DNA from: Anaeromyxobacteraceae bacterium
GTDB taxonomy: Bacteria > Myxococcota > Myxococcia > Myxococcales > Anaeromyxobacteraceae
DNA length: 64,000 nt
Reading direction: 5' to 3'
NCBI GenBank assembly: GCA_047602405.1
Contig: JASGHJ010000002.1
Span: 2,208,001 to 2,272,000 of the forward strand
Part shown: positions 2,899 to 33,342 of the stretch, piece by piece
How the letters are laid out: every line of letters starts with the position of its first letter
Position numbering within the stretch: position 1 is the stretch's first letter
Translations under genes and position numbers: made by a program
The notes under the pieces: model-generated
Seen by the model: the letters and a program-made list of their open reading frames with translations, nothing else
Database searches by the model: none
Told to the model about the DNA's origin: nothing

Positions 2899-2910
2899 CT
2901 TCAGGTTCAA

Positions 2911-3126
<216 letters not shown>

Positions 3127-4912
3127 CTACGCGCTCCTCCGTTCCTTCGCGTCCTCGTCGAACAGCCGCTCCAGCTCCTCTCTCCCCCTCGCGGCCGTGC
3201 TCTGCAGCCGGTCGAGGTCGTTCCGGTGCTGCCAGCTCTCCTCGAGCAGCGCCTCGTCGTGCAGGCGGAACCGCTCCACCGACGCCCGCGCGCTCGCCGT
3301 CTCCTCGCCGAGCGCCTCCAGCACCTGCCCGGTGAGGTCCAGCGACGCCGCGAAGGTCTCGCGCACGATCCGGGTGATCCCGAGGCCGCGCAGCGCGTAG
3401 GCGTGCTGGCGGTTCCGGGCGCGGGCGAACACGGTGAGGTGCGGGAAGTGGTCGCGCAGGAGCTCGGCCGTGCGCACCGAGGCCGCGACGTCGTCGATGG
3501 CGAGCACGAACACCTCGGCCTTGTCGGCCCGGGCCGCGCGCAGGAGCTCGAGGCGCGAGACGTCGCCGAAGAACACCTTGTTGCCGAACCGCTGGATGAA
3601 CTCGATGTGCTCGGAGGACGCGTCGATCGCGGTGAACGGGATGCGCTTCGCCCGGAGCACGCGGGCGACCACCTGCCCCACGCGGCCGAAGCCGGCCACG
3701 ATGACCGGCGGCTCGCCGTCCGGGGCGACGTCGTAGGGGCGCGCCTCGCCGCGTCCGAGCCAGGGCCGGACGACGCGCGCGTGCAGGGCGAAGAGGCAGC
3801 GGCGTCGCCCCCATCGAGAGCGTGACCGCGAGCACGAGCACCTGGGCGAGCTCGGGGTCCATGATCCGCTGCCCGACCGCGAGCGAGAAGAGCACGAACG
3901 CGAACTCGCCGCCCTGCGCGAGCAGGACCCCGAGGGAGAGCGCGGGATCGCCCCGGCCCACGAGGAGGCGGCCCACGGCCCACCCGGCGAGCGCCTTCAG
4001 GGCGTGCATGCCGGCGACGAGCCCGAGGACGAGCAGCGGGCGATCGATCACGAGCCGGAGGTTGGCGCTCATGCCGACCGCGATGAAGAAGAGGCCGAGC
4101 AGGAGCCCCTTGAACGGCGCGATGTCCGCCTCGAGCTCGTGCCGGTACTCGGAGCCGGCGAGCAGGACGCCGGCGAGGAAGGCGCCGAGCGCCATCGAGA
4201 GCCCCGCGGCGGAGACCCCGAGGCCGGTGCCGACCACGAGGAAGAGGGACGCCGCGGTGAACAGCTCCGGGTTGCGCAGCGCGGCGAGCCGGCGGAGGAG
4301 CGGCCGCACCACCCAGCGGCTGCCGAGCGCCACGGCCGCGATGACCGCCACCGCCACGAGCCCGGTGCGCCACGCGGGCGGCGCGCCGGGCGACGCGGCC
4401 CCCCCGGGCGCGAGGAGCGGCAGCACGGCGAGCACCGGGATGACCGCGAGGTCCTGGAACAGGAGGATCCCGAACGCGGCCCGGCCGTGCGGCGCGCCGA
4501 GCTCGCGACGCTCGGAGAGCAGCTGGACCACGAGGGCGGTCGAGGAGAGGGACAGCCCGAGCCCGGCGACCAGCGCCTCCCGCCAGGGCAGCCCGAGCGC
4601 CAGCGCGCCGCCGCCGAGGAGGAGGGTCGCGCCCGCGACCTGGGCCGCGCCGAGGCCGAAGACGTCGCGCTTCAGCTCCACCAGCCGGCGGGGCTCGAGC
4701 TCGAGGCCGACCAGGAAGAGCAGGAGCACCACCCCGAACTCGGAGGCGTGCAGGACCGACTCGGGGTCACCCCCGAGCCCGAGCCCGAATGGACCGATGA
4801 CCGCCCCGGCCGCCAGGTACCCCAGGACGCTCCCGAGCCCGAGCCGGGTCGCCAGCGGGACGGCCAGCACGGCAGCCGCGAGGAACACGAACGCCTGTCG
4901 GAGAAGGTCCAA
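3127..4912 (-). CDS. KefB/KefC-type CPA2 K+/H+ antiporter with C-terminal KTN (TrkA-N) domain; one +1 frameshift at ~3796
   Basis: LLFQDLAV, HELEADIAPFKGLLLGLFF and QGGEFAFV in ORF 3110..4912; AGFGRVGQ...FGD in ORF 3127..3699; removing one base at ~3796 joins them. Confidence 0.85.
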
Positions 4913-6204: not shown

Positions 6205-7278
6205 CTACCGGGGAGCGGGCTCGCCCACCCGGGCGAGCCCCTCCGCGAGGTCCCGCTCGAGATCCTCGGGGTCCTCGATCCCCACGGCGAGCCGCACGAG
6301 GCCGGGCGCGGCCTCGGGGTCGTACTTCCGGCGCCACTCCGCGAGCGACTCGACGCCGCCGAGCGACGTGGCGTCGTGGAAAAGCCGCAGCGCCGCCGGC
6401 AGCGCCTTCGCCCGCTCCTCGCTCGAGAGCTCGATCGCGAGCATCGGCCCGCCGCCGCGCATCTGCGCCCTCGCGAGCGCGTGGCCGGGGTGCGAGGGCA
6501 GCGACGGGTGCCACACCCGGGCGACCCGGGGCTCGAGGAACGCCGCCAGCCGCCCCGCGGTGTCCGACTGCCGCCTGACCCGCAGGGACAGCGTCCGCAC
6601 CCCGCGGAGCGTGAGCCAGGTCTCGAGCGCGCCCATCACGCCGCCCGAGATGGTGCGCGCGTCGTGGAGCGCCTTCCCGAGCGCCGGGTCGCGGGCGACG
6701 AGCACGCCGCCGAGCGCGTCGGAGTGGCCGGCGAGGAACTTCGTGGACGCGTGCATGACGAGGTCGGCGCCGAGGGCGAGCGGCGACTGCAGCACCGGCG
6801 TCGCGAAGGTCGAGTCGACCGCGAGCGCGGCGCCGGCGGCGCGGGCCCGGACCGCGTGGGCCGCCACGTCGGCGAGCTCGCAGGTCGGGTTCTTCGGGGT
6901 CTCGAGCCAGACGAGGTCCCCCTCCCCGGGCGTCGCGTCGAGGCCGACCTCGGGGATCCCGAGCTGGGCGATGGCCGCGTGGGTCGCGTGGTAGCCGCCG
7001 CGTGCGATGGCGACCCGCCGCGGCCGGAGCTGCAGGAGGGCGGCGAAGGTCGCCGCCTGGCCGGAGGCGTAGGTGACCGCGGTGCCGCCCTCGAGCGCGG
7101 AGAGCACCGCCTCGAGCCGGCGGCGCGTGGGCTGATCCTCGCGGCTGTAGAAGAAGCCGCCGGGCGCGCCCGCCGCGAAGGTGGTCGAGACGTGGATGGG
7201 CGGCGCGACGTCGGCGGTGTCCTCGAGGCCGGCGTCGGCGTGGAGGGCGAGGGTGTCGGGGCGGTCGCGCGTGGCCAT
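6205..7278 (-). CDS. Cystathionine gamma-synthase/lyase family PLP enzyme
   Basis: PPIHVSTTF, WLETPKNP, VDSTFATP, HASTKFLAGHSD (PLP lysine) and SLGGVESL. Confidence 0.88.
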   Translation of the reverse strand: MATRDRPDTLALHADAGLEDTADVAPPIHVSTTFAAGAPGGFFYSREDQPTRRRLEAVLSALEGGTAVTYASGQAATFAALLQLRPRRVAIARGGYHATHAAIAQLGIPEVGLDATPGEGDLVWLETPKNPTCELADVAAHAVRARAAGAALAVDSTFATPVLQSPLALGADLVMHASTKFLAGHSDALGGVLVARDPALGKALHDARTISGGVMGALETWLTLRGVRTLSLRVRRQSDTAGRLAAFLEPRVARVWHPSLPSHPGHALARAQMRGGGPMLAIELSSEERAKALPAALRLFHDATSLGGVESLAEWRRKYDPEAAPGLVRLAVGIEDPEDLERDLAEGLARVGEPAPR

Positions 7279-7410
7279 GCAGCGCATCCTCGGGCGAAGC
7301 GCCGCGGCCGGCAAGCGTCCCGCGCCTCCGCCTGCCCCGAGCCCGCCGGAGGGCCCGGGATCGAGAAGGACCGAGCGTCCGCGGCCGCCCTCCGCTAAGC
7401 TCCCGCCCCC

Positions 7411-7942
7411 ATGGAGCTCGTGAAGGACGACGTCGCCGCCCTGCCGGTCACGGGCCTCGACGGCAAGCAGAATCCCGCTCGGCAGCCTCTGGGCCAGGGG
7501 CCCCGCGGTGGTGGTGTTCCTGCGCCACTTCGGTTGAATGTTCTGCCGGGAGCAGGCGGTGCAGTTGCACCGCGACAGGGCCCGCTTCGACGCCGCCGGC
7601 GCGCGCATCGCGTTCGTCGGGAACGGCACCCCGATGTTCGCCCGGACCTTCCAGGAGGACTACGGCCTCGACGAGCCGGTGCTCGTCGATCCGACGAGGA
7701 AGGTCTACAGGGCGCTCGGCTTCGGCCGGCTCACGCTCGGCTCGCTCGTCTCGCCGCGGTCGGTCCTCGCCGCCGCCCGCGCCCTCGCCGGCGGCTTCAT
7801 CCAGGGCCGCACGCAGGGCGACGCGCTCCAGCTGGGCGGCGTGCTGGTGGTGAAGCCGGGCGGCGAGATCGCCTACCGGTACCGCTCGGAGTTCGCCGGC
7901 GACCACCCGAAGCACGATGACGTGCTCGCGGCGCTGGGCTAG
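7411..7942 (+). CDS. Peroxiredoxin-like (AhpC/TSA, PRXL2/SelU-like) selenoprotein, U42-x-x-C45; in-frame TGA at 7535-7537; +1 frameshift at ~7471
   Basis: Reconstructed MELVKDDVAALPVTGLDGKQIPLGSLWARGPAVVVFLRHFG-U-MFCREQ...VDPTRKVYRALG...QGDALQLGGVLVV...GDHP; the TGA falls at the first Cys position of the family's LRHxGCxxC motif. Confidence 0.85.
7556..7573 (+). promoter_or_regulatory. Candidate bacterial SECIS hairpin
   Basis: GCGGTGCA-GT-TGCACCGC perfect inverted repeat beginning 18 nt after the UGA, with a G in the apical loop. Confidence 0.7.
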
Positions 7943-7966
7943 GGTCTCGCGCCCAAGGAGACGACC

Positions 7967-8212
7967 GTGCCGACCGAGGAAGACCTGAAGGCGGAGCTGG
8001 AGAAGCTGAGGGCCGAGAACGCGGCGCTGAAGGCGCGCGGCGCGAAGGGCGTCAGCATGAAGGTGAGCGAGAAGGGCGCCGTGTCCGTCTACGGCCTCGG
8101 CCGCTTCCCGGTCACGCTCTACCAGGAGCAGTGGCTGAAGCTCCTCGACATGGCCGAGGACATCCGCGGCTTCATCAAGGAGAACGAGGGCCGGCTCAAG
8201 AAGAAGGAGTAG
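7967..8212 (+). CDS. Conserved small protein (coiled coil plus KVSEKGAVSVYGLGRFPVTLY module)
   Basis: AAGGAG RBS, typical codon usage, non-shadow amino-acid composition. Confidence 0.8.
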   Translation: MPTEEDLKAELEKLRAENAALKARGAKGVSMKVSEKGAVSVYGLGRFPVTLYQEQWLKLLDMAEDIRGFIKENEGRLKKKE

Positions 8213-9020
8213 GCCAGAGCCCCTGCGTCGCGGCGAGCGCCTCGAGATCCGCGGCGAGGGCGTCCGCGGTGTGGACCACGTCCGCGCCGCCGGCGAGGAG
8301 CTCGCCGACGTCCTCCTCGAACCCGAACGGCCGGAGCGGGCAGTCGCGCAGCGCGAGCTCGAGGAGGCGCTTCTCGCCCGGGTTCGGCCGGCGGTTGAGC
8401 GCGAAGAGCACGTCGAAGGCGCTCGCGAGCAGCGCGGCCACCCGGTGGTTCACCGCGACCGCATCGCCGCGCTCGCGCGCCTTCTCGAGCTGGTGCACGC
8501 AGCTCGAGAGGTCGCGGCGCAGGAGCGGCAGGTTGAGGGCCACGACCGCGCGGCGGAGCGGCTCGGGGTACTCCGCCTGGGCCCGGGCCTTCAGCGCGGC
8601 GAGCCAGCCGTCCCGGTCGAACACCGGCTCGCAGGTGCGGACGTTGTGCCACAGGCAGGTGCTCCACCCCACCCTCGCCTCGTGCCGCACGAGCACCCGG
8701 TCGAGCTCGCCCTCGATCCACCCGCAGTCCCTGAACATCACGTCCACGTGCAGGAGCGCCTCGCGCTCGACCCACTCGTCGCCGGGCTCGAAGCGCAGGT
8801 GAAAGAGCTCGGGGTGCGCGGAGCGGTCGCGGGCGACCGCCTCGCGGTGCTCCCGCGGCACCTCGCCGCGCGCGTACACGTAGAGGTCGAGGTCGCTCTG
8901 GCCGTCCGCCGCGCCGGTCGCCTGCGAGCCGCCGACCGCGACCCCGAGGACGGCGGCGTGCTCCGCGTACCGCGCGGCGAGCTTCCGGGCGATGTCGAGG
9001 ACGAGGTGGCGGGCCATCAC
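8196..9020 (-). CDS. Pol-beta-type nucleotidyltransferase with DUF4037-like C-terminus
   Basis: GGSQATGAADGQSDLDLYV (GS-x-DxD) and FDVLFALNRRPNPGEKRL. Confidence 0.75.
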   Translation of the reverse strand: MMARHLVLDIARKLAARYAEHAAVLGVAVGGSQATGAADGQSDLDLYVYARGEVPREHREAVARDRSAHPELFHLRFEPGDEWVEREALLHVDVMFRDCGWIEGELDRVLVRHEARVGWSTCLWHNVRTCEPVFDRDGWLAALKARAQAEYPEPLRRAVVALNLPLLRRDLSSCVHQLEKARERGDAVAVNHRVAALLASAFDVLFALNRRPNPGEKRLLELALRDCPLRPFGFEEDVGELLAGGADVVHTADALAADLEALAATQGLWPTPSS

Positions 9021-13229: not shown

Positions 13230-15528
13230 TCAGACGTGCACGTCGAGGGCGTCGTCGTGCGCGGCGAGCGCCGACGCCGCGAGCGTCCCGGCCTTCACGC
13301 GCCGCACGATCTCGTCGCGGTCGAGATCGAAGACCGCGTCGAGGATCCCCGCCCGCTCCGCGGCCGGGGCCTGCCCCACCGCGAACAGCACGCGCGCGGA
13401 GTGCTGCAGGTACCGGCGCGAGAGGAGCTGCCGGCGGAGGAGCTCCATGATGACCGGCGCCTTCGAGCGGTCGAACCGGCCCGGCTCGCCCCGCCGGTCC
13501 TGCTCGGCGAAGAACGCGGCGGTCCACTCGTCGTGGTAGGCGATCACCTTCCCGAAGATGCCCGGTCGAGCCGCGTGCCGGCCTTCACCGGCTCCGCCGG
13601 CGCCCCGAGGACCACACCGTCCTCGGTCAGCACCGCGCGCAGGAGGCGGCCGTCCTTCGTCACCGGCGCCTCGTGGCGCAGGAGCGACCAGAGCCAGGAG
13701 ACGTAGATGCGGTAGGTGGCGAGGTCGTTCATGAAGCGCAGGCCGAGCTCGTAGTCGTCGATCGCGGCCGCGAAGTTGCCGTTGAGGATTCTGGAAGCCG
13801 TAGTTCGCGGCCATGTAGAGCGAGTGCTGCACGTGCTCGATGGTGACCTCGCCCTTCGGGACCCCGTAGATCGCGTCCCAGCGCTCCGCCGAGAGCAGCC
13901 GCTCCGGCGTGGCCACGTCCGCCGGGTCGAGGACCGTGGGCGTGATCCGGCCCTGCGCATCGACGAGCCCGCGCGCGCGGAACACCTCGCGCTCCGCATC
14001 GGAGAGGCCGGAGGCCGGCATCGGCACCGGCTTCCCCTTCACCTCCACCGTCGCGAAGGGCGCCCAGACGAGCCCCTGCAGCTCGCCGACCTCCGCCTGC
14101 AGGGGGCGGTTGCCGGCGGCGACGTAGTGCGCCTCCGGGCTCGCCACCCAGCTCTGCCGGTAGGTGTCGTGGAGCTTCCCCTTCACCCGGCCCTCGAGCA
14201 CGTCCTCGAGCGTCGGGCGCGCGCCGGCCGGCAGCGGCGTGGCCGGCACGAAGGTGAGCCCGAGCAGCCGCTCGCGGAGCTTGTCGATCGTCATCGCGCG
14301 GAGCGCGATGGGGTTGTACCGGGAGCGGCCGTACAGGTCGTTCGCCTGGTAGATCATGACGGCGGCCATGCCGCCGATCGGCGCCCCGTTCGCGAGCTCC
14401 CCGCCCTTCATGCCGGCCATCAGCATCGTGAGCGCGTTGAAGCGCTGGTACGCGATCATCCCGGGCGTCGCCATGCCCACGCCCTGCGGGTCCGGGAACA
14501 CGCCCGCGGGATCCTCGCGCCACATCTCGATGAGGCTGCCGAGGTAGTCCCACCGGCCGACGTTCGTGCCGAGCAGGCGGCGGCGGAGCACCCACACGAT
14601 CGCGGGCAGCTGCCGGCCGGCGTTGCCCTCCTCGTAGAGCATCTTGCACTTGAAGGATCCGACCGGCACGCCGGCGATCCCCTCGAGGCGCGACAGGAGC
14701 CGCTCGACCACGAGCGCCTCGCGGGGCGTCTGGAGCTTCGGGAGGTAGAAGTAGACGCCGTGGCCGCGGCGCGCGAGCGCGTCGAGGTTGTTCATCGCCC
14801 ACAGCGTCGTGACGACCGCGATGCCGGGGGCGGGCCGCCCGTCCACCGTGACCGTGTCGAAGAAGATGTGGAGGCCGGGCGGGCGGGCGAGGCGGCCCGG
14901 CCACTCGGCGGGCGGCTTCTCGACGCGGTAGGAGCGGGTCTTCCCCTTCTTCGCGACCTCGTACGGCCGCTCGTCCCACCGGCCCTCGAAGAGGCTCCTT
15001 CGCGTTCTGGAGCGCGGCGAACACGCCGACCGGATCCTTCGTGGACGCGCCCTCGGGCCGGAAGTGCGGCGGCGAGGCGTCCTCGAAGTCCGGCATGTTC
15101 ATCGGCGCCGCGCTGTTGAGCGCGTTCATCGCCATGTCGAGCGGGTACCAGGGGCCGGTGAGCTCGAGGCCGGCGACCTTGCCCGGGTGCACGTGGGCGG
15201 GGACCGGCACCTCGTCGTTGAGGCGCCAGCGCAGCGGCGTCTCCTTCCCGAGGAAGTTGTCGATCATGCCCTGCACGACGTCCTTGAACGGGACCTCGCG
15301 GCCGGTGACGGGATCGGTGAAGCGCTCGTCGAGCGGCCAGCGGTACTTCTCGCGGACCGGCGCCGGCGAGGCGAGCTGCTCGCGGCGCAGGTTGAGCACC
15401 GCGTCGATCTCGGGCCTCAGCTCGCGGGTGAGCGTGTCGATGGTCTCCTCGACGCTCACCTCGCGCCCGTTCACGGTCTTCCTGCCGAAGAGCTCCGGGA
15501 ACCGCGACAGGACGTCGTTCCGGATCAT
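13230..15528 (-). CDS. Malate synthase family protein (~765 aa); three frameshifts at ~14994, ~13790 and ~13560
   Basis: Segments in three ORFs join: MIRNDVL...LELTGP...MPDFEDA / FYLPKL...YEE...GRWDYLGS...IGGMAAV...QSWVASP / MNDLATYRI. Confidence 0.8.
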
Positions 15529-31042: not shown

Positions 31043-33342
31043 ATGGCGAGCTTTCCCCAGACCCTCGCGACGACCGGCCGCAACGCCGCGCCGGCCCTCG
31101 TGCTCGCGACGGCGCTCGTCGCGACGGGGCTCTCCTACCTCTCGGCGCGCTCCGTCGCGGACGTCCAGGTGGCGCGGCGGTTCGAGGACATCGGCGAGGG
31201 CGCGACGGGCGCGCTGCGGCAGCGGATGGACGCGTACCTCCTCATGCTCCGGTCGCTCGCCGGGCTCTCGAACGCGCTCGACCGGGCGCCCACCCGCGCC
31301 GAGTTCCGCGCCCAGTACGAGGCCCTCGAAGCGGCCTCGCACTTCCCGGGCATCCAGGGGCTCGGATGGGTGACCTTGCTCTCCCCGGGGAGCTCGAGGC
31401 GCACGAGCGCGCGGTGCGGGCCACCGGGATCCCGGGCTACCGGGTCTGGCCCCCCGGCCCGCGCGCGGTGATGACGAGCATCGTCCACATCGAGCCGCTC
31501 GACTGGCGCAACCAGCGCGCGGTCGGGTTCGACATGTACTCGGAGCCCGTCCGCCGCGAGGCGATGGAGCGCGCCCGGGACACCGGGCAGCCCGCCGCCA
31601 CCGGCCGGGTCGAGCTCGTCCAGGAGGCTGGCGCGACCCGGCAGGCAGGCTTCCTCGTCTACCTGCCCGTCTACCGCGGCGGCGACCCGCCGGAGACCTT
31701 GGAGGAGCGTCGGGCGCGCCTCATCGGGTGGGTCTACGCGCCCTTCCGGGCCGGCGACCTGCTCGCGGGCACCCTCGCCGTCGCCGACATCCCCGGGATG
31801 CGGCTCGACATACACGACGGCCAGGGCGCGGAGCCGGGGACGCTCCTCGCGGCGCTGGGCGAGCCCGAGGCGGCGGAGCCGCCGGTGCGCGTGCGGGTCA
31901 CGCACGTGGAGGTGGGCGGCCGCACGTGGACGCTGCGCCTCTCGGCCGGGCCCGCCTTCGCGCAGCCCGCCGAGCGCCAGCTCCCGCGCATCGTGGCGGC
32001 GATCTCGGCGGCGATCGCCCTCCTCCTCTTCTGGATCTCCTGGCGGGAGGCCCAGGCCCGCGGCCGCGCGGAGCGCACCGCGCTCCGGAACGCCTTCCTC
32101 GCCGACGCGGGGCGGCTGCTCGCCGCGTCCTTCGACTACTTCCGCACGCTCGACGACGTCGTGCGGCTCGCGGCGGGCCAGATCGCCGACGGGGCGATCG
32201 TCCAGCTCGTGGAGCCGGCCGAGCCGCTCTGGCTCGTCGCGCACCGGGACCCCGCGGCCGGCCGGGCCATCGCGTCGGCGCTCCGGGGCTGGCGCCCGCG
32301 CAGCGAGGACGCGGTCGGCCCGCTCGCGGCGCTGCGCACCGGCGCGCCCATCGTGGTGCGCCGGATCGCCTGGGACGCCCCGCCCCTCGCCGGCAAGCCC
32401 GAGCTCGCCGGCGCGCTCCGCGCGGCGGGGGTCCGCGCCGCCCTGGCCGTGCCGCTCGTCGCCCGCGGCGAGCCCCTCGGCGCCGTCGTGCTGCTCTCCT
32501 CGCGCCGCCTGCGGCCCTTCCCGCCGGAGTCGGTCGCGCTCGGCGAGGATCTCGCCCGCCTCGTGGTCGCCGCCGTCGAGAGCGCCCGCCTCTACCGGCG
32601 CGCGCAGGACGCGGTCCGCAGCCGCGACGAGTTCCTCTCCATCGCCTCCCACGAGCTCAAGACCCCCATCACCTCGCTCGCGCTGCAGGCCGACAGCCTC
32701 CGCTCGTCGGCGACGCGCGGGGACACCGACGCCCTCGTGCGCAAGATCGAGGTGGTCCGCCGGAACGTGCGCCGCCTGTCGAACCTCGTCTCCACGATGC
32801 TCGACCTGTCCCGCATCCAGGCCGGCCGCCTCGACCTCGAGCCGGAGCTCGTCGACCTCGGCGAGCTCGCCCGGGAGGTCGTGGTGCGCCACGGGGAGGA
32901 GGCCGAGCGGGCCCACGTGACGCTGCGGCTCGACGCGCCCGAGCCGGTGATCGGCCGGTGGGACCGGCTCCGCCTCGAGCAGGTGGTCACGAACCTCGTC
33001 ACGAACGCCCTCAAGTACGGGCGGGGCCATCCGGTCGACGTGCGGGCGCGCGGCGCCGGGGACCGGGCGGTCCTCGAGGTGCGGGACCGCGGCATCGGCA
33101 TCGCGCTCGACGACCAGCCCCGCATCTTCGAGCGGTTCGAGCGCGCGGTCTCCGACCGGCACTACGGCGGGTTCGGGCTCGGGCTCTGGATCGTCCGCGA
33201 GGTGGTCGGGGCGATGGGCGGCCAGATCCGGCTGCAGAGCGCGCCCGGCGAGGGCTCCACGTTCACGGTCGAGCTCCGGCGCGCGCCGGACGAGGCCTCA
33301 CCCGCACCGGCGCCGTCGCGCGCCGGCCCAGGAGCCGCCTAG
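31043..33342 (+). CDS. CHASE-GAF sensor histidine kinase; -1 frameshift at ~31388
   Basis: FPGIQGLGW / IEPLDWRNQRAVGFDMYSEPVRREAM (CHASE), GAF, ASHELKTP, NLVTNALKY, GFGLGL. Confidence 0.85.

Follow-up and report, generated by a model that had tools for sequence, protein, structure and literature searches.

A SelL-related, PRXL2-like gene with a predicted selenocysteine codon and a likely assembly frameshift in an Anaeromyxobacteraceae genome

The stretch of DNA analysed here (the window, 64,000 nucleotides) is G000:C2:2208001-2272000 of an Anaeromyxobacteraceae bacterium, whose assembly, G000, comprises 6.16 Mb in two contigs (C1 and C2) with 74% G+C and is 98.4% complete. The locus under study and its nearest neighbours are arranged as follows, in positions of the window.

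6205-7278, minus strand: gene for a Cys/Met-metabolism PLP enzyme, divergent (PF01053, E 8e-80; scoring under each of the equivalog cut-offs listed).
7411-7942, plus strand: SelL-related (PRXL2-like, AhpC-TSA_2) redox selenoprotein gene, predicted 176 aa, from ATG at 7411-7413 to TAG at 7940-7942, with one extra base in the assembly.
7411-7470, plus strand: first 20 codons, lying in another frame than the remainder in the assembly.
7471-7472, plus strand: AA within AGAATC; relatives read AGATC, with one A, so that the frame is shifted by +1, likely through an assembly error.
7535-7537, plus strand: in-frame TGA, predicted selenocysteine (Sec), residue 42, first position of UxxC.
7544-7546, plus strand: TGC, Cys45, second UxxC position, Cys in 45 of 45 TGA alleles.
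7556-7573, plus strand: predicted bacterial SECIS, with arms at 7556-7562 and 7567-7573 and the loop AGUU at 7563-7566 (G at 7564), a gap of 25 nt between UGA and loop, and a folding energy of -12.7 kcal/mol.
7967-8212, plus strand: 81-aa gene, 25 nt downstream of the selenoprotein gene, with no NCBIfam match and a sub-threshold Pfam match.

As an earlier note on this DNA had pointed out, the open reading frame (ORF) track breaks the gene in two, into an ORF at 7411-7920 that runs out of frame and another at 7538-7942 that begins after the TGA. The first 20 codons encode the same amino acids as the ortholog of genome G010, with two synonymous and no non-synonymous differences, and from 7472 a run of 156 codons leads to the TAG with a single in-frame TGA, in FLRHFG-TGA-MFCRE. 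The two parts together make 176 codons, the approximate length that had been proposed. The active site reads VFLRHFGUMFC, that is U42-M-F-C45, and the TGA does lie at the redox-motif position claimed for it, the first Cys column of the CxxC. The segment 7411-7942 is very probably one gene, with a UGA that is likely read as Sec and, at 7471, an additional A that is a likely error of the assembly.

The extra A, which the earlier note had marked for checking, is present in the assembly and missing from G010, a genome of the same genus (92% protein identity) with an unbroken 176-codon gene, and from the related-strain contigs of all eight sequencing runs, filed under eight study codes. These runs represent a relative about 93-96% alike, probably of one species but of another strain than the source, and their best word share with the window was 0.22; the runs listed included no RNA data set with this sequence. 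Programmed +1 frameshifting was rejected, since the base is absent from G010, G021, G031 and the eight runs. A TAA inside an EF-Tu match was also considered as a sign of assembly error and was discarded, the two copies aligning gap-free.

A 108-kb alignment of G000 and G010 contained 42 isolated out-of-frame indels, of which 18 shifted the phase of G000, 3 shifted that of G010 and 21 were unclear. GAATC or GATTC stood in G000 at 5 of 598 GATC sites of G010, against 0 of 594 in the reverse direction. This pattern was spotted after the fact and then tested outside the alignment stretch, where a +1 shift was found at 213 of 426 clearly coding GAATC/GATTC sites, compared with 190 of 18,563 control pentamer sites (1%). 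The insertion, with examples at 7471, 13790 and 23947 of the window, was strongest after A (AGATC/GATCT), and in the AGAATC context, that of 7471, the genome-wide count was 145 of 171. The pattern is read as a systematic sequencing error, because so many real frameshifts in one motif would be implausible. Long-read errors near methylated motifs are described in PMC12710330, and methylation may be the cause here; a search of the genome for a Dam-type (PF02086) methylase returned one weak match, below the cut-off.

A real +1 insertion, which would make the gene a recent pseudogene in the source strain, is improbable. The gene is patchy, 54 of 301 same-phylum genomes having any match to the NCBIfam family NF040769 at E <= 1e-20, so loss does occur, and the run data come from a relative rather than from the source strain; however, the insertion bears a genome-wide signature that shifts the frame at more than 200 clear coding sites, and the rest of the gene is undecayed, differing from G010 by 23 synonymous and 12 non-synonymous codons. 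The +1 frameshift is very likely an artefact, and other frameshift findings in assembly G000 should be discounted for the same GATC insertion error.

Other isolated indels that shift the phase of G000 but not of G010 lie at 1960, 3796, 13560, 13790, 14994, 19337 and 23947 of the window, and further ones at 31384, 34262, 44505, 54658, 56897 and 58208. The indel at 3796 splits what we take to be a K+/H+ antiporter-like gene, and those at 13560-14994 break a gene that is presumably malate-synthase-like. The gap before the antiporter-like gene holds a short-unit repeat tract (about 2910-3100; RSRSRS... on the minus strand). Within the selenoprotein gene, 7494-7501 encodes W-A-R-G-P in G000 and W-A-E-R-P in G010, and the related contigs have one base inserted and one omitted there, possibly a compensated pair of indel errors or plain substitutions.

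Four of the run contigs span 7380-7700, and all four kept the TGA and the hairpin letters unchanged, with neither TGC nor TGT nor any other letters at the TGA. Allele comparisons were based on 301 same-phylum genomes at least 90% complete, of which 42, the source genome included, had an NF040769 match with one TGA. The loci analysed were 49 of the 56 matches and two extra loci, giving 45 TGA and 6 TGC loci of the same phylum; the seven weakest stop-free matches (E >= 1.8e-24), five of them from a more distant subfamily (R[YH][AV]GCPxC), were left out of the allele counts. As a control, 80 further Cys loci from many phyla, one of which duplicates a locus of the first set, were retrieved with a Cys-only pattern. 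The earlier note had expected Cys homologs at the TGA column, and that column holds Cys or TGA in 131 of 131 loci, although the 80 loci retrieved by a Cys-demanding pattern are no test of it. The TGA aligns with TGC/TGT of the 86 Cys loci and with Cys44 of human PRXL2B, and hence with a catalytic Cys, and in all 45 TGA loci it occupies the same column with Cys at +3.

The TGA could instead be a true stop, the product being the 134-aa ORF with a single Cys that begins at the next ATG (7538-7942). Here an ATG does follow the TGA directly, and 108 of the 120 database homologs among the matches listed begin past the Sec column, but such shortened entries are the expected product of a gene caller at a Sec codon, and the 12 listed homologs that span the column all have Cys. 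Furthermore, just 15 of 45 loci have an ATG directly after the TGA, all 45 keep an open upstream frame of 37 codons or more, and RH[FY]G immediately precedes the TGA in 44 of 45 (RHLL in one). A true stop is therefore very improbable.

The genome encodes the machinery for Sec insertion that the earlier note had predicted to lie elsewhere, with selA, selB and selD above their curated cut-offs.

C1:314866: selA.
C1:301733: selB.
C2:257287, plus strand: selD, with its own in-frame TGA.
C2:1906940: tRNA-Sec (selC), anticodon TCA, 76.7 bits.

The genome thus holds all four of selA, selB, selC and selD, as expected for a bacterial selenoprotein. It is highly unlikely that UGA is instead read as Cys, Trp or another residue through an altered code or a suppressor tRNA. 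Cys fills the column in many homologs, as such a code would allow; however, TGA is the commonest stop of the genome (2,455 of 4,060 ORFs), tRNA-Sec is the sole TCA-anticodon tRNA among the 65 called, and the TGA alleles found here all belong to genomes with selA or selB and themselves bear a SECIS-type loop. Either selA or selB was present in all 43 other TGA-carrying genomes, and both in 40, whereas 4 of the 6 same-phylum genomes with the Cys allele lacked both. This co-occurrence supports Sec decoding without proving it and is weaker than it appears, since the genomes are not independent of one another and the phylum as a whole is rich in selA (232 of 301 genomes, 77%, a tally that includes one unpublished genome, G199). 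A crude scan of the genome for TGA plus a hairpin gave 122 candidates, most of them spurious; likely further selenoproteins among them are two BCP/Prx-like genes with PxxxTxxU and one rhodanese-like gene with CKNERU, with families assigned by eye, at C1:1570133 (plus strand), C2:707865 (plus strand) and C1:1183060 (minus strand); selD, with its in-frame TGA, is likely another. A same-order genome encodes a different Prx-like protein (L040, G042:C84:36485) with FLRGFG-U-PFC and a GUU-loop hairpin.

The earlier note had described a perfect stem starting 18 nt downstream of the TGA. The complementary 8-mers GCGGTGCA (7556-7563) and TGCACCGC (7566-7573) are there, and the first begins 18 nt past the TGA, but the 8-bp stem cannot form, because it would close a loop of just 2 nt; the computed fold is a 7-bp stem with the 4-nt loop AGUU, at -12.7 kcal/mol. 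The bacterial SECIS model given in the Fig 2 legend of PMC13188914 comprises a loop of 3-9 nt, a stem of 4-16 bp, G in the first two loop positions, a spacing of 16-37 nt and a minimum free energy of at most -7.5, and the present hairpin, with its 25-nt spacing, falls within each of these ranges. The note had further taken the rare TTG Leu codon as a sign of selection for the stem. Its rarity is borne out (903 of 64,042 Leu codons, 1.4%, over 4,060 ORF tails of the genome), and so is selection, with a different target: the first T of the TTG sits in the loop and CTG would keep the stem intact, and thus the constraint is on the G-U loop, the selected base being the loop U.

Compared with shuffled sequences, the 18-nt piece folds at z -4.35 and a 31-nt piece at z -3.29, both pieces having been picked after the fact, and the whole 60 nt after the TGA folds no better than shuffles (z 0.15). 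In the same genome, the loose SECIS rules were satisfied after 411 of 2,114 ordinary Cys codons (19%) and 201 of 800 ordinary TGA stops, and a strict version (equally stable, with a G[G/U] loop) after 22 and 18 of these, respectively. The hairpin by itself is no more than suggestive, since loose-rule hairpins are frequent after Cys codons in a genome of 74% G+C, and the comparative evidence bears the case.

In that comparison, a hairpin within the SECIS model followed the column in 39 of 45 TGA loci, the other 6 falling outside the rules, compared with none of the 6 Cys loci from the phylum and 6 of the 80 in the control set (6 of 86 Cys loci in total). G[G/U] at +27/+28 was present in 43 of 45 TGA loci versus 11 of 86 Cys loci, and the Leu codon at Sec+10 was TTG in 19 of 20 TGA loci versus 8 of 65 Cys loci, where the Cys genomes have other codon habits. 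In the register of G000, 65% of cells were paired (51.7% when shuffled; 60% after a slide of +1), and double-sided pair changes numbered 40 against 18.3 +/- 2.6 in shuffles, none of 500 reaching as high a count. RNAalifold, run over the 45 TGA loci, yielded no consensus hairpin. Loops of 3, 4 or 5 nt surround the same G-U according to lineage, and this variation in loop size accounts for both the missing consensus and the pairing of 60% at the +1 slide. Considering that the TGA takes the place of the catalytic Cys, that the protein matches the family, that selA, selB, selD and tRNA-Sec are present and that the hairpin is tied to TGA alleles, the UGA at 7535-7537 is very likely a Sec codon, as predicted from these sequence comparisons. 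All three points on which the earlier note had staked the claim, namely Sec machinery in the genome, Cys or Sec at this column in homologs and the absence of TGC/TGT at the site, here in related-strain contigs, came out in favour of a selenoprotein.

Sec and Cys alleles were interleaved in a quick-search tree, with 14 changes of which at least 5 are forced, and this tree is too weak to order the events. Two Cys alleles without a SECIS, L155 (in G162) and L181 (in G107), occur in genomes with selA and selB; the quick tree places the former among Sec alleles, so that it may have changed from Sec to Cys.

The earlier note had likened the protein to PRXL2 and SelU. With the TGA taken as U and the first 20 residues absent, it scored 136.6 bits against NF040769, 'SelL-related redox protein' (cut-off 120), over profile positions 19-172, compared with 102.4 bits for the 134-aa ORF alone and 139.7 bits for the intact G010 ortholog (L024). 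In Pfam, it matched AhpC-TSA_2 (PF13911) at E 4e-21 and, weakly, PF00578 at E 1e-8. The closest PDB relative by a 6-sequence profile was human PRXL2B (E 5e-23), the TGA column falling on Cys44 of its CxxC. In an AlphaFold model of moderate confidence (pLDDT 71, pTM 0.68; 6 sequences, covering residues 21-176 with Cys in place of Sec), a strand (12-17 in the P0001 numbering of the model) precedes the site, with Sec at 22, and a helix begins at 23; the top Foldseek match of the model was again PRXL2B (E 6.5e-9, TM 0.64). The predicted protein thus combines a Trx-like fold with the motif R-x-F-G-(C/U)-x-x-C where the active-site helix begins, the features of PRXL2/SELENOU-like proteins, and human PRXL2B being the closest solved structure by both sequence and modelled fold, the PRXL2/SelU-like assignment holds. 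It is not a true peroxiredoxin (Prx/BCP), as VFLRHFGUMFC lacks the peroxidatic motif PxxxT/SxxC(U), nor SELENOL (SelL) proper, which requires two Sec where all 45 TGA loci have Cys at +3. The best reading of the predicted product is a 176-aa U42-x-x-C45 thioredoxin-fold reductase with PRXL2B as its closest solved relative.

The genomic neighbourhood, which includes a nucleotidyltransferase/DUF4037 gene, was surveyed over 130 loci, 17 of which spanned only about 1.1 kb. A conserved operon or a link to the PLP enzyme was rejected, as that enzyme adjoins the gene in 2 of the 130 loci (G010 and one planctomycete), and the other three neighbours are kept beside it only in G010. The neighbours offer no clue to the substrate, because their association with the gene is essentially confined to G010. 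A search of 7200-8400 revealed neither a sigma-70 promoter nor an intrinsic terminator.

In established Sec biology, SelB in complex with Sec-tRNA recognises the apical G-U loop of a SECIS, and UGA is decoded as Sec. We propose the following scenario for the present gene, in which the steps of peroxide attack are modelled on the fold and on the human enzyme PRXL2B. SelB with Sec-tRNA would bind the G-U apical loop 25 nt past the UGA and deliver Sec at the UGA. The selenolate of Sec42, where the active-site helix begins, may then attack a bulky organic (hydro/endo)peroxide that would be positioned by Arg38/His39, which align with Arg40/Arg41 of PRXL2B; Cys45 would resolve Sec42 with formation of a selenenylsulfide, and re-reduction of the enzyme would fall to a thioredoxin-type or small-thiol system. 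In PRXL2B, according to PMC12938796, the PGH2 endoperoxide is positioned by Arg40/Arg41 and reduced by Cys44, with formation of a 44-47 disulfide. Given Sec, the same selenoprotein may instead be a protein-disulfide reductase or isomerase (Trx/ResA-like), a less probable role that deserves consideration. Its two-residue UxxC box is that of thioredoxins, the PxxxTxxC/U of true peroxiredoxins (motif as given in PMC13188914) is absent, and ResA structures are among the next profile and Foldseek matches. However, PRXL2B is far closer (E 5e-23 versus 2e-5 for ResA in the profile search) and, as described in PMC12938796, reduces an endoperoxide with the R-x-F-G-C box in common. By this analogy, a peroxide is somewhat favoured over a disulfide as the substrate.

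The feature is real, and the gene very likely adds one more ordinary member to a bacterial selenoprotein family that was catalogued before. This family is curated as NF040769, and the result is a sound annotation correction for a gene of a known kind. It matters mainly as an annotation fix, the 108 of 120 listed database homologs lacking the catalytic residue since gene callers start past the UGA. In addition, the 45 TGA and 86 Cys alleles form a natural set for SECIS rules, because the G-U loop position is fixed, the stem register is variable and the amino acids are constrained to build the loop. A literature search for the NF040769, SelL-related or PF13911 family returned no dedicated paper; supplements, which lay outside the search, may list the subfamily.

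Among known systems, the NF040769 family shares with the gene a score above the curated cut-off, and nothing substantive differs except the +1 insertion in the assembly's copy. The bacterial selenoproteins tabulated in PMC13188914 and PMC9312934 include a 'Prx-like thiol:disulfide oxidoreductase' (UxxC/UxxU) and an 'AhpC/TSA family protein' (pfam13911, UxxS), both given as functionally uncharacterised; like the present protein, they are predicted to have a Trx fold with Sec first in the motif. The pfam13911 entry of the table is, however, UxxS, whereas UxxC is found in 45 of 45 loci here, and the tabulated UxxC entry is filed under PF00578. Prx-like UxxC and pfam13911 selenoproteins were found earlier in genomes and marine metagenomes, as reported in PMC1794560 and PMC2398784. 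Eukaryotic SELENOL (SelL), the source of the NF040769 name, has a peroxiredoxin-like motif with Sec in common with this family but, as described in bioRxiv 2025.05.29.656587, carries two nearby Sec forming a diselenide, where the second position here is Cys; according to the same source, SELENOU1/PRXL2A contains Sec in fish and birds. Human PRXL2B (FAM213B prostamide/prostaglandin F synthase; PDB 9US9, 9USA) has the Trx-like fold in common with the present protein, and its LRRFG-C44-x-x-C47 aligns with LRHFG-U-x-x-C, as do the C-terminal QxGG and GD boxes, at about 24-32% identity, although PRXL2B carries Cys instead of Sec and its substrate is prostaglandin H2. The family described here is the nearest bacterial relative of PRXL2B found in this study and offers a tractable system for work on the PRXL2/SELENOU enzymes, which have received little study.
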